DNA of 62,401 bases from Bacilli bacterium (GCA_035367155.1 DAOSJI010000004.1:1-62401), one strand, 5' to 3'; positions 5,589 through 61,216 are shown, counted from the stretch's first letter. Made by a program: numbers and translations. The notes: generated by a model not told the origin, from the sequence alone.

Positions 5589-6056
5589 ATGACAAAAGTT
5601 GGTTTTAAAACGAAAGAGTATTTAAAGTATGCGATATTTTCTTTTCTTATTGCTTCTTTAATTTTAATTCTAACTTTTATTCTACTTTTTATTTTATTGC
5701 CTAACGAGGCAAAAAATGAAACCTTCTTAATACTTTTTGGTTTATTAGTTGTCCTTGTAATATTTATTATTCGACTTATATATTACTTAGTTTTACCTAC
5801 TAAAATTATTCAAGCAGATGAAAGGGAATTAATTCTATACCCAAAAACAAAAAAAGAACAAATTATTTTGTTCCAAGATATTTTAAATATAAGCAGAGCT
5901 AAGTTTTTTGTTACTCTTTTTTTTACGAAAGAAATGTTTACTATAGTTTTAAAAAATAACAAGATAATTCGTGTTCCTTTTTTTAAGGATGAAGTAGAAC
6001 TTTTAGCCTATTGCAAAAAGGCACATTTTGAAGCCAACTTTAAGATTAAGAAATAA
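5589..6056 (+). CDS. membrane protein with two N-terminal TM helices and a PH-like (YdbS/bPH_2-like) C-terminal domain
   Basis: The topology of 2 TM followed by an approximately 90-aa soluble domain resembles bacterial PH-domain membrane proteins. No clear RBS, so it may be coupled to 5133-5576. Confidence 0.4.
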   Translation: MTKVGFKTKEYLKYAIFSFLIASLILILTFILLFILLPNEAKNETFLILFGLLVVLVIFIIRLIYYLVLPTKIIQADERELILYPKTKKEQIILFQDILNISRAKFFVTLFFTKEMFTIVLKNNKIIRVPFFKDEVELLAYCKKAHFEANFKIKK

Positions 6057-6170
6057 ATTTTTACCATTGTATAGGAACAATTTTATTGGCACTTGTCACA
6101 ACATTTGCAAATATGATTAAATGTTTGTATAATACGTTAGGTATTTATACCTAAAAAAGGAGGAATTGAA

Positions 6171-6527
6171 ATGGCGAATGATAAAAAAACACCCTTCGGC
6201 GGCATAGCCATTTCGGCTAATGCGATTGAAGAAGTCGCCTCCGAGGCAGCTCTAAACTCATATGGAGTTGCAGGTCTATCCCAAAGAACACGGGGTAATA
6301 AGCCTCTAGATATCTTTCTAGATTCAAAGACATTTAGTAAAGGTGCTATTGCAACTAAATCCCGCAGTGGATGGACAGTAGACGTCTATATTATTGTAGT
6401 CTACGGATTAAAAATAACTGAAATTATCAGCGGTGTTCAAAGCCGTGTTAAATATGAATTAGAAAAAACCTTTGATATGAAATTAAGAGCAGTAAATATT
6501 TATATCCAAGGTGTGAAAGTGATGTAG
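6171..6527 (+). CDS. Asp23/Gls24 family (alkaline shock protein-like, YloU-type)
   Basis: AGGAGG RBS. N-terminal GGIAISANAIEEVASEAALNSYGVAG is typical of Asp23. Conserved neighbour of the DAK2/FakA gene. Consensus promoter: TTGCAA 6105-6110, 17 nt spacer, TATAAT 6128-6133. Confidence 0.8.
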   Translation: MANDKKTPFGGIAISANAIEEVASEAALNSYGVAGLSQRTRGNKPLDIFLDSKTFSKGAIATKSRSGWTVDVYIIVVYGLKITEIISGVQSRVKYELEKTFDMKLRAVNIYIQGVKVM

Positions 6528-6538
6528 AGGATTTTATT

Positions 6539-8203
6539 ATGCGTGAGTTAAATGGTTTAACCCTCAAAGAAATGCTCATCTCGGGTGCAAATAACTTATA
6601 CAATAATTATCCCGCGATTGACGCTTTAAACGTTTTCCCTGTTCCTGATGGTGATACAGGGATGAATATGAATTTAACAATTTCTAGCGGTGCTAAGGAA
6701 ATTTCAAATTTAAATGATCATGATATTTCAAGAATTGCTAAAGCCTTTAGTAGAGGTCTACTTATGGGGGCAAGAGGCAACTCTGGCGTTATAACAAGTC
6801 AAATTTTCCGCGGTTTTGCCAATGGTTTAGAAGGCAAAGAAAAAGTTAATGCACGTGAACTAGCAGAAGCATGGGTTTTAGGTAAAGAAGTTGCTTATAA
6901 AGCGGTTCTTCGTCCTGTTGAAGGAACGATTTTAACTGTTTTAAGAGAGGCTTCTGATGCACTTTTAGAAAATGTTAAAAATGATTGGTCTATAGAAAAG
7001 GCTTTTGATTTCTTTTTAAACGAAGCAAGAGAATCGCTTGAACGAACACCTGACTTACTACCAATTTTAAAAGAAGTTGGTGTTGTCGATAGCGGTGGTG
7101 CTGGTTTAGTTACAATCTTTGAAGGTATGCAACTAGCTCTAGCAGGCAAAGTAGTATTAAAAACAACTGCTACTGCTTTTGAAGAAGAAAAACCAACTGC
7201 TTTAAAAATGGAAGCTACGGAAGAATTCGGTTATTGTACAGAATTTATTATGCGAATTGGTGGTGAAAACAAACGCCCGTTCCAAGAAAAACGATTCCTT
7301 AATGTCTTAAATAGTCATGGAAATTCGATCGTATATGTAAAAGATGAAGATATCGTTAAAGTTCACGTCCATACTTTAAAGCCTGGTAATACACTTAACT
7401 ATGCTCAACAATATGGTGAATTTGTAACACTTAAAATTGAAAACATGAGTGAACAACATACTCATTTATCAAATGGTCAAAATTTACAAGTTACATCTAG
7501 TTCGCTTGCTGATGCTGTCGCGCCAGTTGAGCGAAAAAAATATGCAATAATTGCTGTAGCAAGCGGAGATGGTATTAAAAGTTTATTTGAAGAATATCGC
7601 GTTGATTATGTTGTAAGTGGTGGTCAAACTATGAACCCATCAACTGAAGACTTTATTGAAGCAATTAATAAGGTAAATGCAGAAAACATCTTCATTTTGC
7701 CGAATAATTCAAACATTATTATGGCTGCTGCCCAAGCATGTGATGTTGTAGCAGATGATCCAAATGTAACGGCACATGTCATTCCTAGTAAAACAATCAT
7801 GCAAGGTTTAGTTGCAGCTATGAGTTTTAATCCAGAAAACGATGTTGATATGATTGTTGAAGATATGAACGAAGCATTAACCGCAGTAAAAACTGGTCAA
7901 GTGACATTCGCTATTAAAGATACAACTATTAGTGGTATTGAAGTGAAAAAAGATTATTATATGGGTTTAAATGGAAAAGAAATCGTATGTTCAGTTAAAG
8001 ATAAGTTTGAAGCTGCATTAATTACCATTGAAAAAATGATCGATGAAATGAGTTCAATCGTCACAGTGATTTTTGGTGAAGATGTTAAAGAAAAAGATGC
8101 TAAAAATTTAATCAAAAAACTTGAAAACAAATATAAAGATATTGATTTTGATTTAGTTAATGGTAATCAACCTGTTTATAGTTTTATTATCGGTGTTGAA
8201 TAG
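6539..8203 (+). CDS. fakA: DAK2-domain protein, fatty acid kinase catalytic subunit FakA (YloV-type)
   Basis: DhaL motif PDGDTGMNM. About 550 aa with a two-domain layout. Located upstream of plsX, as in Firmicutes. Confidence 0.8.
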   Translation: MRELNGLTLKEMLISGANNLYNNYPAIDALNVFPVPDGDTGMNMNLTISSGAKEISNLNDHDISRIAKAFSRGLLMGARGNSGVITSQIFRGFANGLEGKEKVNARELAEAWVLGKEVAYKAVLRPVEGTILTVLREASDALLENVKNDWSIEKAFDFFLNEARESLERTPDLLPILKEVGVVDSGGAGLVTIFEGMQLALAGKVVLKTTATAFEEEKPTALKMEATEEFGYCTEFIMRIGGENKRPFQEKRFLNVLNSHGNSIVYVKDEDIVKVHVHTLKPGNTLNYAQQYGEFVTLKIENMSEQHTHLSNGQNLQVTSSSLADAVAPVERKKYAIIAVASGDGIKSLFEEYRVDYVVSGGQTMNPSTEDFIEAINKVNAENIFILPNNSNIIMAAAQACDVVADDPNVTAHVIPSKTIMQGLVAAMSFNPENDVDMIVEDMNEALTAVKTGQVTFAIKDTTISGIEVKKDYYMGLNGKEIVCSVKDKFEAALITIEKMIDEMSSIVTVIFGEDVKEKDAKNLIKKLENKYKDIDFDLVNGNQPVYSFIIGVE

Positions 8204-8319
8204 ATAAGAATAAAACATTAAAGAGGGCTTGCAAAAGCCCTTTTTTTGTAATTAAATCCTTTTTTACTATTACTTCATTAATAGTAAAAATTTGTTATAA
8301 TATAAGGCGAGGTGATTTT

Positions 8320-9075
8320 ATGAGAGCATCAAATATATTTTTATCAAGATTTGCAAAAAAAGGTGTTGGAGAACAACAAGCTACTTTAAGTGGCATTAGT
8401 ATTAAAACAATTATTTTAACACTAGTCACCATTCTTACTGGTGCAATTAGTGTTGCAACTGGGATGAGAATTATTTCAGTTGAAGGATTTGAAACTCTAG
8501 AAATGGCAATGCCACTTTGGATAGCTTTTGGTGTCAGCGTATTTATTGGTATTTTTGCGGCAATGTTAGGTCTATGGATTCCTAAAATTGCTAATGTTAT
8601 GTCGTTTATTTACGCAATTGCACAAGGGATTTACTTAGGAGTAATAAGTGCGATTATTGATATTGTTTTCCCTGGCGTTGTTTTTATGGCTGCAGGAGCA
8701 ACAGTAATTATTTTCCTAATCATGTTGCTTTTATATAGAAACAATACATTTAGAAACATTAATCTTGTTTACAAAGTAATGATGGGAATTATGATTGGTG
8801 TTTTTGCTTGTAGTATTTTATTTTTAATTATGTTTCTTATTACTGGTGGTTTAGCAATTCCTTGGTATATTCCATTTTTAATTTCTTTTGCGGTACTAAT
8901 TTATGCATCTTTAATGCTTGTAATGGATTTCGAATATGCTGTATCAGTAGTTAATGCTGGACTAGATAAGCGATATGAATGGGTAGCATCTTTAAGTCTA
9001 TTAATTACGATTTTATGGATTTATGTTAAGGTTTTACGCATTTTGATTATTCTTTTAGGTAATCGTCGGAGATAA
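8320..9075 (+). CDS. Bax-inhibitor-1-like (BaxI_1-type) 7-TM membrane protein
   Basis: The N-terminus MRASNIFLSRF resembles the SNP-x-x-S-R start of this family, followed by about 7 TM helices. The assignment is made from memory of the family. Confidence 0.45.
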   Translation: MRASNIFLSRFAKKGVGEQQATLSGISIKTIILTLVTILTGAISVATGMRIISVEGFETLEMAMPLWIAFGVSVFIGIFAAMLGLWIPKIANVMSFIYAIAQGIYLGVISAIIDIVFPGVVFMAAGATVIIFLIMLLLYRNNTFRNINLVYKVMMGIMIGVFACSILFLIMFLITGGLAIPWYIPFLISFAVLIYASLMLVMDFEYAVSVVNAGLDKRYEWVASLSLLITILWIYVKVLRILIILLGNRRR

Positions 9076-10052: not shown

Positions 10053-10722
10053 ACTTATCACTTTTTTAAAAACATACGACATAGAACCGCATGATATTAG
10101 CTTATATCAAGCGGCTTTTACTCATTCAAGTTGTAATGTAAAAGGTGATGTTAAAAGTTATGAAAGACTTGAATTTTTAGGTGATGCACTTATTAATGGA
10201 TATGTTGCATATTTAATTTTTAAACATCGTCCTAATTTAACTGAAGGTGATATGACATTAATGCGAAGCGAGATAGTTCAAACAAGATCGTTAGCAAAAA
10301 TTGGCAAAAATCTTGGACTCGGTGAACTAATTATTTTTGGCGATAGTATAAATCCTAAAGAAGCACTTCAAAATGAAAGATTTTATGAAGATGTTTTAGA
10401 GGCATTTGTTGGTGCGTTGTATCTTGATGCTGGTCCAATTAAATCAAAAGAAATAATGAGTGTTATTTTTAGTCCAATAGTAAAAAGTCATGATTTAAAG
10501 AAAACAACTAATTATAAAAATGTTCTTCAAGAAGCAATTCAAGCTGAAAGAAGAGAAACAGTTCATTATGTTTCAACAAAACACATCTCACCTAATAACG
10601 AACATTATTTTGAAGCTGAAGTCTATTTGGAAGATATTAAATTAGGTCGAGGTACGGGTAAAACCAAAAAAGCCGCTGAGCAAGAAGCGGCTAAAGATGC
10701 CCTTGAAAAGAAAGCGGGTTAA
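10045..10722 (+). CDS. rnc: ribonuclease III
   Basis: RNase III signature ERLEFLGDA plus a C-terminal dsRBD (GTGKTKKAAEQEAA). Confidence 0.9.
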   Translation: MNKLITFLKTYDIEPHDISLYQAAFTHSSCNVKGDVKSYERLEFLGDALINGYVAYLIFKHRPNLTEGDMTLMRSEIVQTRSLAKIGKNLGLGELIIFGDSINPKEALQNERFYEDVLEAFVGALYLDAGPIKSKEIMSVIFSPIVKSHDLKKTTNYKNVLQEAIQAERRETVHYVSTKHISPNNEHYFEAEVYLEDIKLGRGTGKTKKAAEQEAAKDALEKKAG

Positions 10723-39819: not shown

Positions 39820-41304
39820 TTGACGAAAAAAGATCAAAAACAACTTAAAACACCATACTTTACAAAACTTAAGGAATATGCAGAATCTGACCCTACATCC
39901 TTAGATGTTCCAGGTCATAAATTAGGTCGTTTAAATAATGAGCTAGCAGAATATGCTGGTCATAATTTTTTACGTTTAGATGCTAATGGACCTCGAGGTC
40001 TAGATAACATGTCAAATCCTAAAGGTGTTATTAAAGAAGCTCAAAGTTTAATGGCTGAAGCCTTCGGAGCAGATAGGTCATATTTTTTAACTAATGGAAC
40101 AACACAAGGTATTTTAGCGGTTATTATGTCTGCGTGTAGAGCAAATGAAAAAATAATTATTCCTCGAAATGTTCATAAATCAGTTATAAATGCCCTAATT
40201 TTAAGTGGAGCAAAACCGATCTTTGTTAAACCAAATATTGATAAAACATTAGGTATTGCTAATGGAGTGTCTATAAACGCAATAAAAAGAGCAATTGATG
40301 AAAACCCCGACGCTAAAGTTGTTTTTGTAATAAATCCAACTTATTTTGGTGTTGTTAGTGATTTAAAAGAGATTGTTAATCTTGCTCATAAGAAAGATAT
40401 GAAAGTAATCGTTGATGAAGCTCATGGAGGACAATTTTATTTTTCCAAAAAACTTCCTTTTGGTGCAATTGAAGCTGGAGCAGACGTAAGTATTGTTTCT
40501 ATTCATAAGACAGTTGGTTCTCTAACTCAAAGTTCTGCCATTTTAACAAAGGGTGATCGTGTTGATCATAACCGACTTCAAGCTACACTTAATATTTTAA
40601 ATTCAACATCACCTAGTTCTTTATTATTAGCAAGTTTAGATGTTGCAAGAAAAGACATTTATTTTAATGGAAATAAGAAGATTAATAGATTAATTAATAT
40701 GACTGAAAAGGCACGAGAAAAAATTAATCAAATCCCTGGAGTAGAAGCTATAACGGAAGACTATTTTAAATCAAAGGGTGAATTTGGTTATGACAATACT
40801 AGAATTATTGTTAAAGTCTCAGATCTTGGAATTACAGGTTTTGAAGTCTATAATGAATTAAGAGATCGCTACAATATTCAACTAGAACTTGCAGAAACGC
40901 ACTTGATTTTAGCAGTTTTAACAATGGGAACAGAAGAAAAAGATTTAAATCATTTTGTAAGTTCGCTTAAGAAAATAGCTAAAAAATATTTAAAATTGAA
41001 TCTAGATCCAATCGTTCAAAAACCTGTTTATAATGAACCTATATATTATATGAGGCCTCGTGAAGCCTACCATGCATATAAAAAATATGTTTCTATTGAT
41101 GAGGCTAAGGATGAGGTCGCGGCGGAATCAATTATGATTTATCCGCCTGGTATTCCAGTTGTCATTCCTGGTGAAGTAATAAGTGAAGAAATCATCAATG
41201 ACTTAAAAGATTATTTAAAGAAGGGTTCAACAATTTTAAGTGAATCAGAATCGGGATTTATTAAAGTTGTAGATTTAGAAAATACTCATTCGGAGGAAGA
41301 TTAA
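39820..41304 (+). CDS. speA: PLP-dependent Orn/Lys/Arg decarboxylase, probably arginine decarboxylase (SpeA, Firmicutes type)
   Basis: TTG start after GAGGAA. PLP lysine box SIHKTVGSLTQSS. Directly followed by agmatinase. Confidence 0.75.
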   Translation: MTKKDQKQLKTPYFTKLKEYAESDPTSLDVPGHKLGRLNNELAEYAGHNFLRLDANGPRGLDNMSNPKGVIKEAQSLMAEAFGADRSYFLTNGTTQGILAVIMSACRANEKIIIPRNVHKSVINALILSGAKPIFVKPNIDKTLGIANGVSINAIKRAIDENPDAKVVFVINPTYFGVVSDLKEIVNLAHKKDMKVIVDEAHGGQFYFSKKLPFGAIEAGADVSIVSIHKTVGSLTQSSAILTKGDRVDHNRLQATLNILNSTSPSSLLLASLDVARKDIYFNGNKKINRLINMTEKAREKINQIPGVEAITEDYFKSKGEFGYDNTRIIVKVSDLGITGFEVYNELRDRYNIQLELAETHLILAVLTMGTEEKDLNHFVSSLKKIAKKYLKLNLDPIVQKPVYNEPIYYMRPREAYHAYKKYVSIDEAKDEVAAESIMIYPPGIPVVIPGEVISEEIINDLKDYLKKGSTILSESESGFIKVVDLENTHSEED

Positions 41305-53796: not shown

Positions 53797-54474
53797 ATGG
53801 AAGAAAACATTACAAAAATGCCCTTAATTGGCGAAAAAGCCCCTGCTTTTACAGCAGTTACAACGCAAGGAACAATTAATTTCCCTGCTGATTATGAAGG
53901 AAAATGGGTTATTCTATTTTCTCACCCAGCTGACTTTACCCCAGTTTGTACAACTGAATTTATGACTTTTGCATCTTTAGAAAAAGAATTCAAAGCTTTA
54001 AATACAGAACTTATTGGTTTATCAGTCGACTCCCTATATGCCCATATAGCGTGGCTTCGTAAAATTCAAGAACTTGAATGGAACGGCCACAAAAACTTAG
54101 AAGTAAAGTTCCCTCTTATTGAAGACATTACGATGAATGTAGCAAAAAAATATGGAATGATTCAACCAAATCAATCAACCACTCAAGCTGTACGTGCTGT
54201 CTTTATTATCGATCCAAAAGGAATTATTAGAACGATTCTTTACTATCCAATCTCAACTGGACGTAATTTTGATGAATTACTCCGTCTTATCCAAGCTCTT
54301 CAAAAAGCTGATAAAGACAACGTTGCAACCCCCGCTGATTGGAGACCAGGAGATGACACCATTATTCCAACTGCAGGATCATGTGGAACTGCAAAAGAAA
54401 GAATGGAAGATAAGTCTGATGATAAGTATTGTTTAGACTGGTTCCTTTGCTTTAAACGAGAAAAGAAAAAATAG
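53797..54474 (+). CDS. peroxiredoxin (Prx6/1-Cys-like)
   Basis: Peroxidatic Cys motif HPADFTPVCTTE. AAGGAG RBS. Confidence 0.85.
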   Translation: MEENITKMPLIGEKAPAFTAVTTQGTINFPADYEGKWVILFSHPADFTPVCTTEFMTFASLEKEFKALNTELIGLSVDSLYAHIAWLRKIQELEWNGHKNLEVKFPLIEDITMNVAKKYGMIQPNQSTTQAVRAVFIIDPKGIIRTILYYPISTGRNFDELLRLIQALQKADKDNVATPADWRPGDDTIIPTAGSCGTAKERMEDKSDDKYCLDWFLCFKREKKK

Positions 54475-57870: not shown

Positions 57871-57946
57871 GCCGACTTAGCTCAATTGGTAGAGCAACTG
57901 AATCGTAATCAGTAGGTTGGGGGTTCAAGTCCTCTAGTCGGCACCA
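57871..57946 (+). tRNA. tRNA-Thr (anticodon CGU)
   Basis: Acceptor GCCGACT/AGTCGGC, anticodon arm ACTGA-ATCGTAA-TCAGT, encoded CCA. Confidence 0.9.
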
Positions 57947-57958
57947 TATAGAAAGAAT

Positions 57959-57986
57959 AGCCCAAAATATTGGGCTTTTCATTTTA
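57959..57986 (+). terminator. intrinsic terminator after tRNA-Thr; left boundary of the ncRNA array
   Basis: AGCCCAA-AATA-TTGGGCT followed by TTTTCATTTT. Confidence 0.75.
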
Positions 57987-58029
57987 TTAACAGATTAACT
58001 TGGGCTATCTAGGATTATTAAATAATTAT

Positions 58030-58112
58030 AAAAAAATGAGGTAAGCGACCCGATAAATCGTTCCTAGCAAACCTCACACTAATATAATAAACGATTATGT
58101 ATAATTAGTCAA
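58030..58112 (-). ncRNA. array unit A1 (family A): promoter plus an approximately 48-nt hairpin RNA
   Basis: Minus strand: TTGACT (58112-58107), 17 nt spacer, TATTAT (58089-58084). The RNA GUGAGGU...ACCUCAU plus U7 starts about at +1. Confidence 0.55.
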
Positions 58113-58215
58113 AAAAAGTGAGAACCAGTCACCCAATTCTCAAGCCGTAGCTGGACACACATGAATTATCATGCAACCCCACAAATGTATTTAAGCATTT
58201 ATCAATTAAAGTCAA
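58111..58215 (-). ncRNA. array unit B1 (family B): approximately 70-nt small RNA
   Basis: TTGACT (58215-58210), 16 nt spacer, TAAATA. RNA: GGGGUUGCAUGAUAAUUCAUGUGUGUCCAGCUACGGCUUGAGAAUUGGGUGACUGGUUCUCAC plus U7. Its U-tract overlaps the -35 of A1. Confidence 0.6.
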
Positions 58216-58232
58216 TAAAAATATAAATTATT

Positions 58233-58336
58233 AAAAAAGAACATGATAGTGACAGAGCAAATGCTCCGAATATGTTCCTAAAAGGAATGAGTATCATGTT
58301 CATTTGTAAAATAAGCTATTTACACATAATTGTCAA
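58233..58336 (-). ncRNA. array unit C1 (family C): approximately 70-nt three-way-junction RNA
   Basis: TTGACA (58336-58331), 17 nt spacer, TATTTT. A 10-bp closing stem GAACAUGAUA/UAUCAUGUUC encloses the hairpins UUCCU-UUU-AGGAA and GGAGC-AUUU-GCUCU. A U6 tail follows. Confidence 0.6.
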
Positions 58337-58359
58337 GCAAAAAAGGAGTAAATAGATAT

Positions 58360-58463
58360 AAAAAAAGTGAGAACCAGTCACCCGATTCTCTTGGTGTAGT
58401 CAGACACACATGAATTACCACATCGCCCGTTAGCAAACTAAACCACGTAACAATAAATGTCAA
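58360..58463 (-). ncRNA. array unit B2 (family B variant)
   Basis: TTGACA (58463-58458), 17 nt spacer, TAGTTT. The 3' half ...UAAUUCAUGUGUGUCUGACUACACCAAGAGAAUCGGGUGACUGGUUCUCAC plus U7 is shared with B1, B3 and B4. Confidence 0.6.
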
Positions 58464-58464
58464 G

Positions 58465-58541
58465 AAAAATAAAGGCGGAGATAAACTCCGCTTGACGAAT
58501 GTGGTTACTGAGAATTCCATAGTTACCGCATAAATATAATA
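58465..58541 (-). ncRNA. array unit D1 (family D): approximately 65-nt RNA
   Basis: -10-like TATTAT (58541-58536) with no clear -35. RNA: GCGGUAAC...GUAACCAC hairpin, then terminator GCGGAG-UUUAU-CUCCGC plus UUUAUUUUU. Confidence 0.45.
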
Positions 58542-58563
58542 GTATATATTTTTAAAAATAAAT

Positions 58564-58765
58564 AAAAAATAGGCATTTCAGCCTATTATCGTAGGTTTTG
58601 AGTACACCATGCTTATCCCTGACACCTACAAACTACCGGGGCAACCGCGAATTAATAATGGCTGAAGCCTTACTACAGTGGTACTCCCTTCTGTAACCTT
58701 CTTAACGCACACCAGCAAGATTTCTCTTGCTCATATATTATTTATAAATATATTAAAATAGTCAA
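58564..58765 (-). ncRNA. array unit E1 (family E): approximately 170-nt structured RNA
   Basis: TTGACT (58765-58760), 17 nt spacer, AATAAT. 5' hairpin GCAAGA-GAAA-UCUUGC. Internal helices are supported by compensatory changes against E2a. Terminator AUAGGC-UGAAAU-GCCUAU plus U6. Confidence 0.65.
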
Positions 58766-58774
58766 TTATTTTAT

Positions 58775-59000
58775 AAAAAATAGGTCTGATTTCTCACTCA
58801 GACCTGGGTGATGCGCCAACCCCGTTATCTCCGTGCTTATAAAAGTGAGGGAGGCGGTTTTAACTCTTCTCATAGTGGATGGCATGCCCTTTTACATTCC
58901 TAGCTTTACATGACGGCATCAATGGTCAACACATTATGGGCAAGAATGGCAAGATTTCTCTTGCATTTATATTATTAATTAAACAATTATAAAAATCTAA
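58775..59000 (-). ncRNA. array unit F1 (family F): approximately 190-nt structured RNA
   Basis: Same 5' hairpin GCAAGA-GAAA-UCUUGC as family E. Terminator AGGUCUGA-GUGAGAAA-UCAGACCU plus AU6. -10 AATAAT with a weak -35 (TTAGAT). Confidence 0.55.
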
Positions 59001-59001
59001 T

Positions 59002-59167
59002 AAAAAATAGGCATTTCAGCCTATTAAGCGTAGGTTCTGACGAAAATGTCTACCCTGACACCTACAAACTAACGGGGACACGCCGCGTATTATGGTCGAG
59101 GAGCTACAATAGTGTCGCCACATTCTATTACCCTCTATACGCCCAACCACCAAGATAACTCTTGGAA
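59002..59167 (-). ncRNA. array unit E2a (family E, diverged copy; downstream half of a tandem dimer)
   Basis: 5' hairpin CCAAGA-GUUA-UCUUGG. Conserved core GUUAGUUUGUAGGUGUCAGGG. Terminator AUAGGC-UGAAAU-GCCUAU plus U6. No promoter of its own is recognisable. Confidence 0.6.
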
Positions 59168-59370
59168 CTAAGCATTTCAGCTTAATCTTTGTAGGTTTTG
59201 CAACCTTCAGCTTCCCTGAACTCCTACAAACTACTGGGACAGCTACTCCAGAATTCAAATTGGTCGAAGCCTTACTACAGGTCGATTGCCAACATCTGTA
59301 ACCTTCTTAACGGAAACCAGCAAGATTTCTCTTGCGTTTATATTGTTATTCGTAATTATAAAATTGTCAA
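59168..59370 (-). ncRNA. array unit E2b (family E, diverged copy; upstream half of a tandem dimer)
   Basis: TTGACA (59370-59365), 17 nt spacer, AACAAT. 5' hairpin GCAAGA-GAAA-UCUUGC. The 3' hairpin UAAGC-UGAAAU-GCUUA lacks a U-tract, so read-through into E2a is expected. Confidence 0.6.
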
Positions 59371-59378
59371 ATAAATAT

Positions 59379-59461
59379 AAAAAAATGAGGTAAGCGACCC
59401 GATAAATCGTTCCAAGCGAACCTCACACTAATATAATAAACGATTATGTATAATTAGTCAA
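59379..59461 (-). ncRNA. array unit A2 (family A)
   Basis: Copy of A1 with 2 substitutions inside the hairpin. TTGACT (59461-59456) and U7 terminator. Confidence 0.55.
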
Positions 59462-59564
59462 AAAAAGTGAGAACCAGTCACCCGATTCTCAATATGTAGT
59501 AAGGTACACATGAATAATCATGCAACCCCACAAATGTATTTAAGCATTTATCAATTAAAGTCAA
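59460..59564 (-). ncRNA. array unit B3 (family B)
   Basis: Same promoter, 5' part and terminator as B1. The central window differs at 8 of 13 positions (GUGUACCUUACUACAUAUUGAG against GUGUGUCCAGCUACGGCUUGAG). Confidence 0.6.
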
Positions 59565-59582
59565 TAAAAAATATAAATTATT

Positions 59583-59684
59583 AAAAAAGAACATGACATT
59601 GACCGAGTAACCTCCGAATGAGTTCCAATAAGGAACAAAAATCATGTTCAATTGAAAAATAAACTATTTACACATAATTGTCAA
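59583..59684 (-). ncRNA. array unit C2 (family C)
   Basis: TTGACA (59684-59679). Closing stem GAACAUGA/UCAUGUUC and hairpin GUUCC-UUAUU-GGAAC. Conserved AUUCGGAG. U6 tail. Confidence 0.6.
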
Positions 59685-59712
59685 GTAAAAAAGGAGTAAA
59701 TAGATATGTGAT

Positions 59713-59816
59713 AAAAAAAGTGAGAACCAGTCACCCGATTCTCTTGGTGTAGTCAGACACACATGAATTACCACATGGCCCACTAACAAACTAAACCATT
59801 TAAAAGTAAATGTCAA
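59713..59816 (-). ncRNA. array unit B4 (family B variant, copy of B2)
   Basis: TTGACA (59816-59811). The 3' two-thirds are identical to B2. The 5' segment differs (GUGGGCCAUGUGG against ACGGGCGAUGUGG). Confidence 0.6.
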
Positions 59817-59817
59817 G

Positions 59818-59982
59818 AAAAATAGCCTTACGAATAAGGCTATTCAGTGGCTAGTCTTTTAACGAAACCTACACCCGTACCGAACATTCTAGCCTGTGTT
59901 AGCGTCCTCTGGCCTAACCCCACTTTTTATCGTGCTTTTCACGGGATTAACTTTATTGTATTAAAAGAAAAGTAAATGTCAA
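59818..59982 (-). ncRNA. array unit X (single copy): approximately 130-nt multi-helix RNA
   Basis: TTGACA (59982-59977), 16 nt spacer, TACAAT (59960-59955). Helices CGUG-AAAAG-CACG, AGUGG/CCACU, GUUAG/CUAAC and GGCUAG/CUAGCC. Terminator AGCCUUA-UUCG-UAAGGCU plus AU5. Confidence 0.6.
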
Positions 59983-59983
59983 G

Positions 59984-60060
59984 AAAAATAAAGGCGGAGA
60001 CAAACTCCGCTTGACGAATGCGGTTACTGAGAATTCCATAGTTACCGCATAAATATAATA
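59984..60060 (-). ncRNA. array unit D2 (family D)
   Basis: Copy of D1 with 2 substitutions. One of them restores a pair (GCGGUAAC...GUAACCGC). Confidence 0.45.
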
Positions 60061-60082
60061 GTATATATTTTTAAAAATAAAT

Positions 60083-60284
60083 AAAAAATAGGCATTTCAG
60101 CCTATTATCGTAGGTTTTGAGTACACCATGCTTATCCCTGACACCTACAAACTACCGGGGCAACCGCGAATTAATAATGGCTGAAGCCTTACTACAGTGG
60201 TACTCCCTTCTGTAACCTTCTTAACGCACACCAGCAAGATTTCTCTTGCTCATATATTATTTATAAATATATTAAAATAGTCAA
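60083..60284 (-). ncRNA. array unit E3 (family E; identical to E1)
   Basis: By eye the sequence is identical to 58564-58765, including promoter and terminator. Confidence 0.65.
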
Positions 60285-60293
60285 TTATTTTAT

Positions 60294-60518
60294 AAAAAAT
60301 AGGTCTGATTTCTCACTCAGACCTGGGTGATGCGCCAACCCCGTTATCTCCGTGCTTATAAAAGTGAGGGAGGCGGTTTTAACTCTTCTCATAGTGGATG
60401 GCATGCCCTTTTACATTCCTAGCTTTATATGACGGCATCACTGGTCAACACATTATGGGCAAGAATGGCAAGATTAGTCTTGCGTTTATATTATTGATTA
60501 TAATTGTAAACATGTCAA
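60294..60518 (-). ncRNA. array unit F2 (family F)
   Basis: Canonical TTGACA (60518-60513), 17 nt spacer, AATAAT. 5' hairpin GCAAGA-CUAA-UCUUGC. The body is near-identical to F1. Confidence 0.6.
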
Positions 60519-60606
60519 ATAGATAAATAAAGGTTTATTTATTAGGGGATCAAAATATCGAAATAACACTAAATGATTATTAGTAATATATCTAATTTGC
60601 ACTATA

Positions 60607-60639
60607 GAAAAAAGCAAGTGCACTGGACACTTGCTTTTG
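60607..60639 (-). terminator. intrinsic terminator of the lipoprotein gene; right boundary of the ncRNA array
   Basis: AAGCAAGTG-CACTGGA-CACTTGCTT, flanked by an A run and a T run. Confidence 0.75.
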
Positions 60640-60670
60640 TGTTTACTTTTTAATTATGAGAAATTATTAG

Positions 60671-61216
60671 TTACTTATAAGTGATTTTCCATAGTTGTGT
60701 TTCAACTTTTTCATTTGCCTCATAACCTACGCCACTAGCTTCAATAGCAAATCCGTACTCATTATAAATAAAGTAGGCTTCATAATAATCACCACTTTCT
60801 TTATCAGGTATAAATTCTAGTTTAAGACGTTTATTAATTAAACGTTCAGTATAGAATTTAGCTTTACCTTCTGCGCCTTCTTCAGTATTAAACTCTCCAT
60901 ACTCACCAAAGTAGGCATCAACGGTGAACATCACAATAAATGCTAAAGTGATTTGTTCCTCTTCAGTTCCTTGGTTTCGCGAATCATCTTCTGCAAGACG
61001 GACCGTTGATTCAGTTTTTGAACCATCTTTTTCGACTTTTACTTTTGCTTCAATTTCTGTAAACTCTTCAAGTTCTTCACGTTTTTCAGCTGTGGCAAGT
61101 GCTTTTTCTTTAAATGTCGCATAAGATACTTCTTTATATCTTAAATTACTTAAAGAACAACTTCCTAAAAGTGCGACAAGTGAAAGAGTAGTAAAAATTT
61201 TTGTGATTTTTTTCAT
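60671..61216 (-). CDS. hypothetical lipoprotein (181 aa)
   Basis: AAGGAG RBS. Signal peptide with lipobox LLGSC. Confidence 0.7.
   Translation of the reverse strand: MKKITKIFTTLSLVALLGSCSLSNLRYKEVSYATFKEKALATAEKREELEEFTEIEAKVKVEKDGSKTESTVRLAEDDSRNQGTEEEQITLAFIVMFTVDAYFGEYGEFNTEEGAEGKAKFYTERLINKRLKLEFIPDKESGDYYEAYFIYNEYGFAIEASGVGYEANEKVETQLWKITYK

Follow-up and report, generated by a model that had tools for sequence, protein, structure and literature searches.

Small RNA (sRNA) genes lying side by side as paralogues are exemplified by PrrF1 and PrrF2 of Pseudomonas aeruginosa, whose longer product PrrH arises through regulated read-through of a working terminator, and by LhrC1-5. ToxI-type (type III) antitoxin RNAs consist of repeats of ~34-36 nt and have been captured by the phage PhiTE, and the large structured RNAs GOLLD, ROOL and HEARO, all of them in Rfam, are often found in prophages near transfer RNA (tRNA) genes. 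In the S. aureus prophage phiNM2, an sRNA cluster, srn_9342-9346, was mapped experimentally after the lysin gene (PMC5496865). Titration is the mode of action of SprY, another prophage sRNA (PMC8501977). Phages also carry morons, which are autonomous accessory transcription units (PMC3594210). Here we describe family E, a structured RNA family found in a 62,401-nt stretch of DNA from a Bacilli bacterium (GCA_035367155.1, DAOSJI010000004.1:1-62401; hereafter the window) and, as the two-unit E2 cassette, on a putative mobile element.

Family E is absent from the catalogues and is a new structured sRNA family, probably one that moves as a self-contained cassette, an "RNA moron". It is probably an accessory RNA gene exchanged by a sludge bacterium with a phage-like element. 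An sRNA gene carried as accessory cargo beside a phage attachment site (attP) is of an already known kind; new are the family with its covariation-supported multi-helix fold, the obligate two-unit transcript, and the family's occurrence in a protein-free chromosomal array as well as on elements. A well-supported RNA family is thereby added from a poorly known low-GC anaerobic-digester lineage. The case also shows that a purely RNA-coding cassette can be common to a chromosome and a small temperate element almost unchanged, about eight times better conserved than its flanks, and it links chromosomal sRNA arrays with RNA "morons" beside phage attachment sites, two subjects usually treated separately.

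Like the prophage-end sRNA clusters of Firmicutes (phiNM2, SprY), E consists of autonomous promoter-to-terminator RNA genes that, in temperate elements, have the last late or lysis gene on one side and the attachment site on the other, and both are accessory and reshuffled among relatives. The clusters nevertheless bear no sequence relation to E, which is longer (~165 nt), has a covarying multi-helix fold and an invariant core, and differs further in its obligate two-unit locus and in a protein-free chromosomal array without phage genes nearby. GOLLD, ROOL and HEARO resemble E as phage-linked structured RNAs of unknown function in tRNA-rich neighbourhoods, but E is several times smaller and has no Rfam match.

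The window is low-GC bacterial DNA (33% G+C) with 23S and 5S rRNA genes and nine dispersed tRNA genes. Closely similar DNA occurs in activated-sludge, wastewater and anaerobic-digester metagenomes, and the locus is also present in one NCBI metagenome-assembled genome, GCA_035395205.1. Between a tRNA-Thr gene (57871-57946) and a lipoprotein gene (60671-61216) lie ~2.6 kb without credible open reading frames (ORFs), in which a signal scan found nine minus-strand promoter-like sites scoring at least 10/12 and 20 terminator-like hairpins against 1.8 expected. The 2.6-kb stretch is an array of ~13 small RNA genes of several families, part of it duplicated. In the window a covariance model recognises four E copies and no more, each of them on the minus strand, with a mean column identity of 82% (the identical pair E1 and E3 included); family lengths range from 164 to 173 nt, and E2a and E2b are ~70% alike. 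E1, E2b and E3 each possess a sigma-70-like promoter scoring 10/12, whose -10 hexamer ends 7 nt ahead of the first G of the 5' hairpin, and the 3' ends of E1, E2a and E3 are terminator-like hairpins followed by a U-tract. The copies and their signals are as follows.

58564..58730, minus strand: E1 RNA gene, 167 nt (covariance model, 178.8 bits), identical in sequence to E3
58737..58765, minus strand: E1 promoter, TTGACT-17-AATAAT, its -10 hexamer ending 7 nt upstream of G58730
58587-58568, minus strand: E1 terminator (terminator scan)
58987..59379, minus strand: E2 cassette, promoter and terminator included, with 95% identity to L039:2862-3255 and L040:3695-4088
59166..59335, minus strand: E2b, first unit of the dimer, 170 nt (covariance model), without a terminator
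59342..59370, minus strand: sole promoter of the E2b-E2a dimer, TTGACA-17-AACAAT (signal scan)
59002..59165, minus strand: E2a, second unit of the dimer, 164 nt (covariance model), with 5' hairpin CCAAGA/UCUUGG and no promoter
59025-59006, minus strand: E2a terminator (terminator scan)
60083..60249, minus strand: E3 RNA gene (covariance model), identical to E1
60256-60284, minus strand: E3 promoter (signal scan)
60106-60087, minus strand: E3 terminator (terminator scan)

Covariance model R1 aligned 14 matches, nine of them distinct, with identity down to 75%; five of the distinct sequences come from outside the window, and four of the nine from other lineages. Across the five helices P0, P2, P3, S2 and terminator, which together hold 28 pairs, all 252 of 252 cells are standard pairs and 10 of the 28 pairs show double-sided changes, counts to be read with the alignment having been fitted to the covariance model. 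None of 500 column shuffles reached these counts, and a control in which partners were slid by 1-3 columns gave 0-1 double-changed pairs. Compensatory change beyond what column composition and neighbouring columns yield was found for P0, P2, P3 and the terminator. The elements of the fold in E1 are listed here, followed by newly seen compensatory changes in other copies.

RNA nt 1-6/11-16: P0, the 5' hairpin (covariance model)
RNA nt 22-29/76-85: P1, bulged (manual table)
RNA nt 30-33/64-67: P2 (covariance model)
RNA nt 35-40/53-58: P3 (covariance model)
RNA nt 91-93/112-114: S1, candidate pseudoknot (manual table)
RNA nt 100-106/136-142: S2, core stem (covariance model)
RNA nt 145-150/157-162: terminator hairpin, followed by the U-tract
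P0 in L011: GCAAGA/UCUUGC to GUAAGA/UCUUAC
P2 in L011: GAAG/CUUC to AGAG/CUCU
P2 in L015: GAAG/CUUC to GAGG/CCUC
P3 in L011: UUACAG/CUGUAG to UUACGG/CCGUAG

The original prediction, made from the four window copies, had proposed that compensatory changes maintain a fold, and every change it named is present: E1 and E3 have the same sequence, the 5' hairpin of E1 and E2b closes with G-C where that of E2a closes with C-G, the inner helix passes from UUACAG/CUGUAG in E1 and E2b to UAAUAG/CUAUUG in E2a by two double changes, and the flanking helix from GAAG/CUUC to GAGG/CCUC in the same copies. The nine distinct sequences, with their 10 double-changed pairs out of 28, support the fold. Its view that selection acts on RNA structure and not on coding agrees with the recurrence of compensatory changes in the added lineages, with an 80-aa ORF being missing in E1 and E3, and with the mostly unpaired position of the substitutions in E2.

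Helix P1, the candidate pseudoknot and the link to a mobile element are additions to that prediction. P1 and S1 were added by hand and are counted in the manual table only, neither having passed the tool-based pair test. P1 encloses P2-P3 through the strands UGCG-UUAA and UUAA-bulge-CGCG; it varies to UCCG/UGGA in E2b and GCGUAU/AUACGC in E2a, amounting to three double changes, and 5 of its 72 cells in the manual table are unpaired. The candidate H-type pseudoknot would pair the CCC ahead of the core with the GGG of CAGGG, with the variants CUCC/GGAG in L011 and UCCC/GGGA in E2b.

The core itself is an invariant 20-nt block, UAGUUUGUAGG(U/A)GU(U)CAGG, part of which is modelled as pairing with the downstream AACCUAC(R)A. 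A strongly conserved core followed by a stem closing on ACCUAC had likewise been named in the original prediction; the invariant core (UAGUUUGUAGG(U/A)GU..CAGG), with its stem onto AACCUAC, coincides with repeat family D7. The core 12-mer has 5 matches against 0.19 expected, and neither the window nor 12.9 kb of the element contains a site complementary to the core. An invariant core on a covarying scaffold offers a handle for partner pull-down.

58617..58641, minus strand: E1 core, RNA CCCCGGUAGUUUGUAGGUGUCAGGG (repeat family D7)
59053-59077, 59215-59239 and 60136-60160, minus strand: cores of the other E copies (repeat family D7)

Two resemblances of the core carry little weight. It can be written as UAG-N4-UAG-N4-CAG, that is, NAG triplets at a 7-nt period, which recalls HutP-type sites, and the cores of E2b and L015 contain AGUAGUU, the unit of the genome's 11-nt-phased AGTA arrays.

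The E2 locus differs from the other copies in its junction. E2b ends in the hairpin UUAAGC-UGAAAU-GCUUAG, which is followed only by UU and then by the 5' hairpin of E2a, and the signal scan found no promoter-like site of at least 10/12 and no terminator-like site at the junction, as expected from the earlier observation that E2b lacks a U-tract and E2a a promoter. Parts of the locus occur in nineteen metatranscriptome runs, and in six runs contigs identical to the window, at depths of 4-33, span the junction (59165/59166); because RNA contigs from six runs cross it, the dimer is transcribed as one unit, a predicted 334-nt transcript from one promoter. The junction-spanning contigs are listed here.

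59030-59326: RNA contig across the E2b/E2a junction
59034-59421: RNA contig across the junction
59032-59321: RNA contig across the junction
59037-59321: RNA contig across the junction
59096-59394: RNA contig across the junction
59036-59298: RNA contig across the junction

These contigs match the chromosomal allele, and coverage of the surrounding 16 kb in the same runs is patchy, ranging from 0 to ~9000, so an RNA origin fits better than contaminating DNA. Most contigs break off where sequence common to other copies begins, and their ends therefore do not map transcript ends. A contig from a relative that joins E and F units (family F is described below) reaches a depth of 335. Exact contigs of E1 or E3 were not found in four RNA runs, which does not imply their absence. 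The proposal of a promoter-sharing dimer thus stands as far as the signal scan, the junction contigs from six runs and the retention of the dimer on the mobile element go, and it needs amending in that some transcripts start further upstream. Like PrrF/PrrH and LhrC1-5, E2 comprises adjacent paralogues and a longer transcript over two units. PrrH, however, depends on read-through, whereas E2b has lost its U-tract and E2a its promoter; the dimer is therefore the default product. As a natural obligate dimer, it provides a simple test case for the processing of multi-unit sRNA precursors.

Homologues were sought by scanning the exact core pattern across species-representative genomes, JGI metagenomes and IMG/VR. 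Among 185,579 species-representative genomes, 5 matches were found, all attributable to chance, and in IMG/VR the scan returned only chance matches within coding DNA; IMG/VR scans with the family B terminator and with the 5' half of E found nothing. In the JGI metagenomes two of eight matches were true loci, namely the E2b-E2a dimer at 98% identity (L007) and a 75% E homologue with its own TTGACA/TATAAT promoter and terminator (L011). Contigs located through flanking genes added an 89% variant of E1 (L015) and a variant with a 3-nt deletion (L025). A distant blastn search of the INPHARED phage collection yielded no E homologue. Rfam 15 gave no match at gathering thresholds, no overlap with any E copy at E-values of 5 or below over 5.4 kb, and only noise at E-values of 10 or below for the E2 locus and L011. 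As far as the sequences searched extend, family E is limited to one digester lineage and its elements.

One further match was not counted as a member. At L056:10591-10700, on the minus strand, the 3' half of E is weakly matched (10591-10686, 18.6 bits, E-value 0.01) near the end of a related prophage and beside rimP-nusA, with a CCCU...AGGG pair, a stem UUGUUAGU/ACUAACGA and a terminator with a UGAAAU loop as in E. It may be a distant relative or a chance resemblance.

The E2 cassette provides the link to mobile DNA. Its element copy comes from a 14.6-kb integrase-bearing contig (L039:1-12886), and the cassette is the sole similarity, in DNA or protein, between that element and the 62-kb window. 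Within the transcribed part the chromosomal and element copies differ at 8 of 334 positions (2.4%), and in the flanks at 11 of 59 (19%). Six of seven substitutions fall at unpaired positions, the seventh, C-G to U.G, keeping its pair, and both promoter hexamers are kept in the element copy as TTGACA and AATAAT. The gene order on this contig runs through gene X (720 aa), the small membrane protein gene TM (87 aa) and a 169-aa gene to E2a and E2b on the opposite strand, with a tyrosine integrase, a helix-turn-helix (HTH) repressor, a replisome organiser and an HNH endonuclease beyond attP. The attP lies ~190 nt past E2b, its core ending GGTTGCACCA (CTCTCTGGTTGCACCA in the longer form) and accompanied by four TTGGGTATC arm repeats; in the element family it comprises a core resembling a tRNA 3' end, with one TTGGGTATC repeat on one side and three on the other. 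No tRNA of the window matches this core. A second contig (L040) is identical up to the attP core and diverges exactly after it, and so resembles a prophage-host junction. The dimer of L007 likewise adjoins unfamiliar genes, among them X and TM.

The cassette sits between the late-gene end and attP in L039, L040 and L041, and at the corresponding place in L011, where the E gene directly follows homologues of X (37% identity) and TM (40% identity); L011 is a second, divergent element whose 75% E relative occupies an equivalent position. Its TM gene (L011:499-690, minus strand) has an in-frame TGA inside a membrane helix and stays open only when this codon stands for tryptophan, and for this reason the L011 element or its host probably uses genetic code 4, unlike the window. 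Full-length X has 16 homologues. Three of the contigs that carry them are 11.5-14.3-kb elements of matching gene order in which TM, the 169-aa gene and E are missing; one of these relatives, L051, carries the same arm repeats. Altogether L051-L055 are relatives with X and integrase and no E. Prophages with TM homologues are devoid of E apart from the weak L056 match, and a search with an X fragment led to a plectrovirus-like Rep neighbourhood (L036), also without E. Element and host array occur together in three JGI metagenomes, with matching G+C contents.

On these features we class the element as temperate, phage-like and integrative, though not as a proven phage, since its late genes mostly have no Pfam or PHROG match and X has a single 30% match, in an uncultured phage record. 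L039, L040 and L051-L055 form a family of integrase-bearing elements of 11.5-14.6 kb with a fixed gene order ending in the 720-aa X; scarcely any of their late genes match Pfam or PHROG, and they may represent uncharacterised temperate viruses of low-GC, wall-less-like bacteria.

The description of E as a moron follows from this arrangement, because a promoter-to-terminator cassette sits between the last late gene and attP and is missing in relatives. The E2 cassette brings its own promoter and terminator, and the late-end position beside attP in L039, L040, L041 and L011 contrasts with its absence from the related elements L051-L055. Morons share with E the possession of an own promoter and terminator and a presence in the host through horizontal transfer; E is inserted between X and attP, which are adjacent in L051 and separated in L039. 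Classic morons encode proteins, whereas E is a structured RNA.

How such an RNA might work can be sketched from its parts. The terminal 5' and 3' hairpins would protect the RNA from exonucleases, and a cut in the dimer between the 3' hairpin of E2b and the 5' hairpin of E2a would release two capped monomers. The P1-P2-P3 arm would serve as a scaffold, and the invariant core would present the binding surface for a trans-acting partner, perhaps within an H-type pseudoknot in which CCC/GGG crosses UUGUAGG/CCUACRA. That partner would more likely be fixed, a protein for instance, than an mRNA, because the core is constant among paralogues and has no complement in the sequences searched; sibling RNAs that act by base pairing usually differ in their seeds. 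The setting would most likely be the dealings between element and host, because cargo beside attP usually acts there. A bolder version, to which we give only a slim chance, holds that the array is a library whose structured RNA cassettes pass to and from temperate elements and come into play in element-host conflict, for example as decoys or antidotes for an RNA-binding defence factor, with the E core as a mimic and the E2 dimer caught in transit.

Several points weigh against this account of E as a mobile, folded RNA cassette. The mechanistic part is an inference. The chromosomal E copies lie outside any recognisable prophage, and around the array there are no tRNA 3' fragments, no integrase arm repeats and no protein-level similarity to the element, so that the array copies may serve the host alone. 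The RNA contigs are strandless and break at repeats, and they address transcript ends, monomer processing and the transcribed strand only indirectly. Two of them, ending at 59394 and 59421, extend from inside E2b through its promoter (59336-59421, minus strand) and reach the terminator of the neighbouring family A RNA gene on the upstream side, which implies read-through from that neighbour and some transcripts starting further upstream. The sequences represent about five independent lineages, all from digester or wastewater samples. Core stem S2 and most of the core are invariant and give no covariation support for their pairing, and folding energy is ordinary (z = -0.75 for E1, z = -1.4 for the dimer), which leaves covariation in about five lineages as the basis of the case for structure. 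The candidate pseudoknot S1 is tentative, because its support amounts to one double change and one extension and because the conserved UGG (nt 17-19) offers a competing pairing, with CCR (nt 92-94) or CCA (nt 70-72).

Alternatively, the E copies could be ordinary base-pairing sibling sRNAs, each acting on mRNAs of its own through a partly variable single-stranded segment or a C-run anti-Shine-Dalgarno seed, in the manner of RsaE/RoxS or LhrC. Several paralogues with their own promoters and terminators fit this, as does a conserved C-run (CCCC, UCCC or CUCC) ahead of the core, although that run is predicted to be paired in S1. Nucleotides 60-75 of E1 and E3 (AAGGCUUCAGCCAUUA) are moreover a perfect 16-nt complement to window positions 40049-40064 on the plus strand, inside an ORF (39820-41304) for a 494-aa Orn/Lys/Arg-decarboxylase-like protein, with an estimated chance expectation of ~0.01 for the comparisons made. 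Yet this segment is partly paired in P2, and the match is missing in E2a, E2b, L015 and L011; the core, for its part, finds no complement in the sequences scanned for one, and typical seed-plus-terminator sRNAs are shorter than E and have simpler folds. We regard base pairing as unlikely on this evidence, if still worth serious consideration. We give a slim chance to E being an RNA antitoxin or anti-defence decoy, the host copy keeping a toxin or defence effector in check and the element copy neutralising that effector during infection, as PhiTE does with ToxI-like repeats. ToxI and E2 do have in common tandem RNA units under one promoter, a layout that recalls processed antitoxin repeats, together with a near-identical host copy on a mobile element (95-98% identity for the element cassette). 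E, however, has no adjacent toxin-like gene at any copy: no endoribonuclease gene lies directly downstream in or beside the array, which is without ORFs of note, and the element neighbours have no Pfam or PHROG match. Nor is E2 built of several near-identical short repeats, as its two diverged units measure 170 and 164 nt instead of ~36 nt and are only ~70% alike, and monomeric copies are the rule.

Conservation might instead act on DNA, E being a site of recombination or attachment, or else a dispersed repeat, that is transcribed only incidentally. On the element E has attP as its neighbour, the core shows no variation as DNA either, and array units are gained and lost between strains; but the crossover core of the element, ending GGTTGCACCA, lies away from E2b, compensatory changes keep the pairing of the RNA, and promoter and terminator are retained in every copy, which together render this reading very improbable. 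We give still less credence to E as a cis-acting leader, a riboswitch or a small-protein gene. A multi-helical fold that contains an invariant core and runs straight into a terminator would suit a leader, and an ORF does run across the dimer, the only one there (80 aa, TTG start). No E copy is placed in a 5' untranslated region, however: no gene follows any array copy before the next promoter, which belongs to another RNA gene, and in L039 the next gene is the convergent 169-aa gene. The ORF lacks a ribosome-binding site and does not occur in E1 or E3, and a riboswitch finds no Rfam counterpart even at an E-value of 10. The account of E as a structured RNA cassette, probably a moron, is accordingly the one we retain.

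Family F, whose units recur side by side with E units as pairs, is a separate RNA family that has in common with E only the 5' hairpin GCAAGA-GAAA-UCUUGC. Since the E model matches F units only through its own first 16 positions, this hairpin is a module common to both families. The interval to which family E was originally assigned (58564-59370) takes in an unrelated F unit too.

58790..58965, minus strand: family F unit between E2a and E1 (repeat families), matched by the E model at positions 1-16 only
58949-58964 and 60467-60482, minus strand: starts of family F units, carrying the 5' hairpin of E

Array unit content varies among strains, as seen when 57950-60650 is compared with L015, L024, L025 and L027, and one lineage keeps no more than one unit each of F and E together with a short hairpin RNA. 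The spacer from the lipoprotein gene to the protease gene measures 2874 nt in one assembly, whereas other assemblies have 3067 nt. Some strains (L015:2476-3927, L020-L023) have an AbiEii-type toxin gene and a 196-aa partner inserted beside a DUF2188 gene, an insertion that the window does not contain. Elsewhere in the window, the peroxiredoxin (AhpC-TSA) gene at 53797-54474 on the plus strand reaches a contig depth of ~6000-9000 in one biogas metatranscriptome, far above that of its neighbours.

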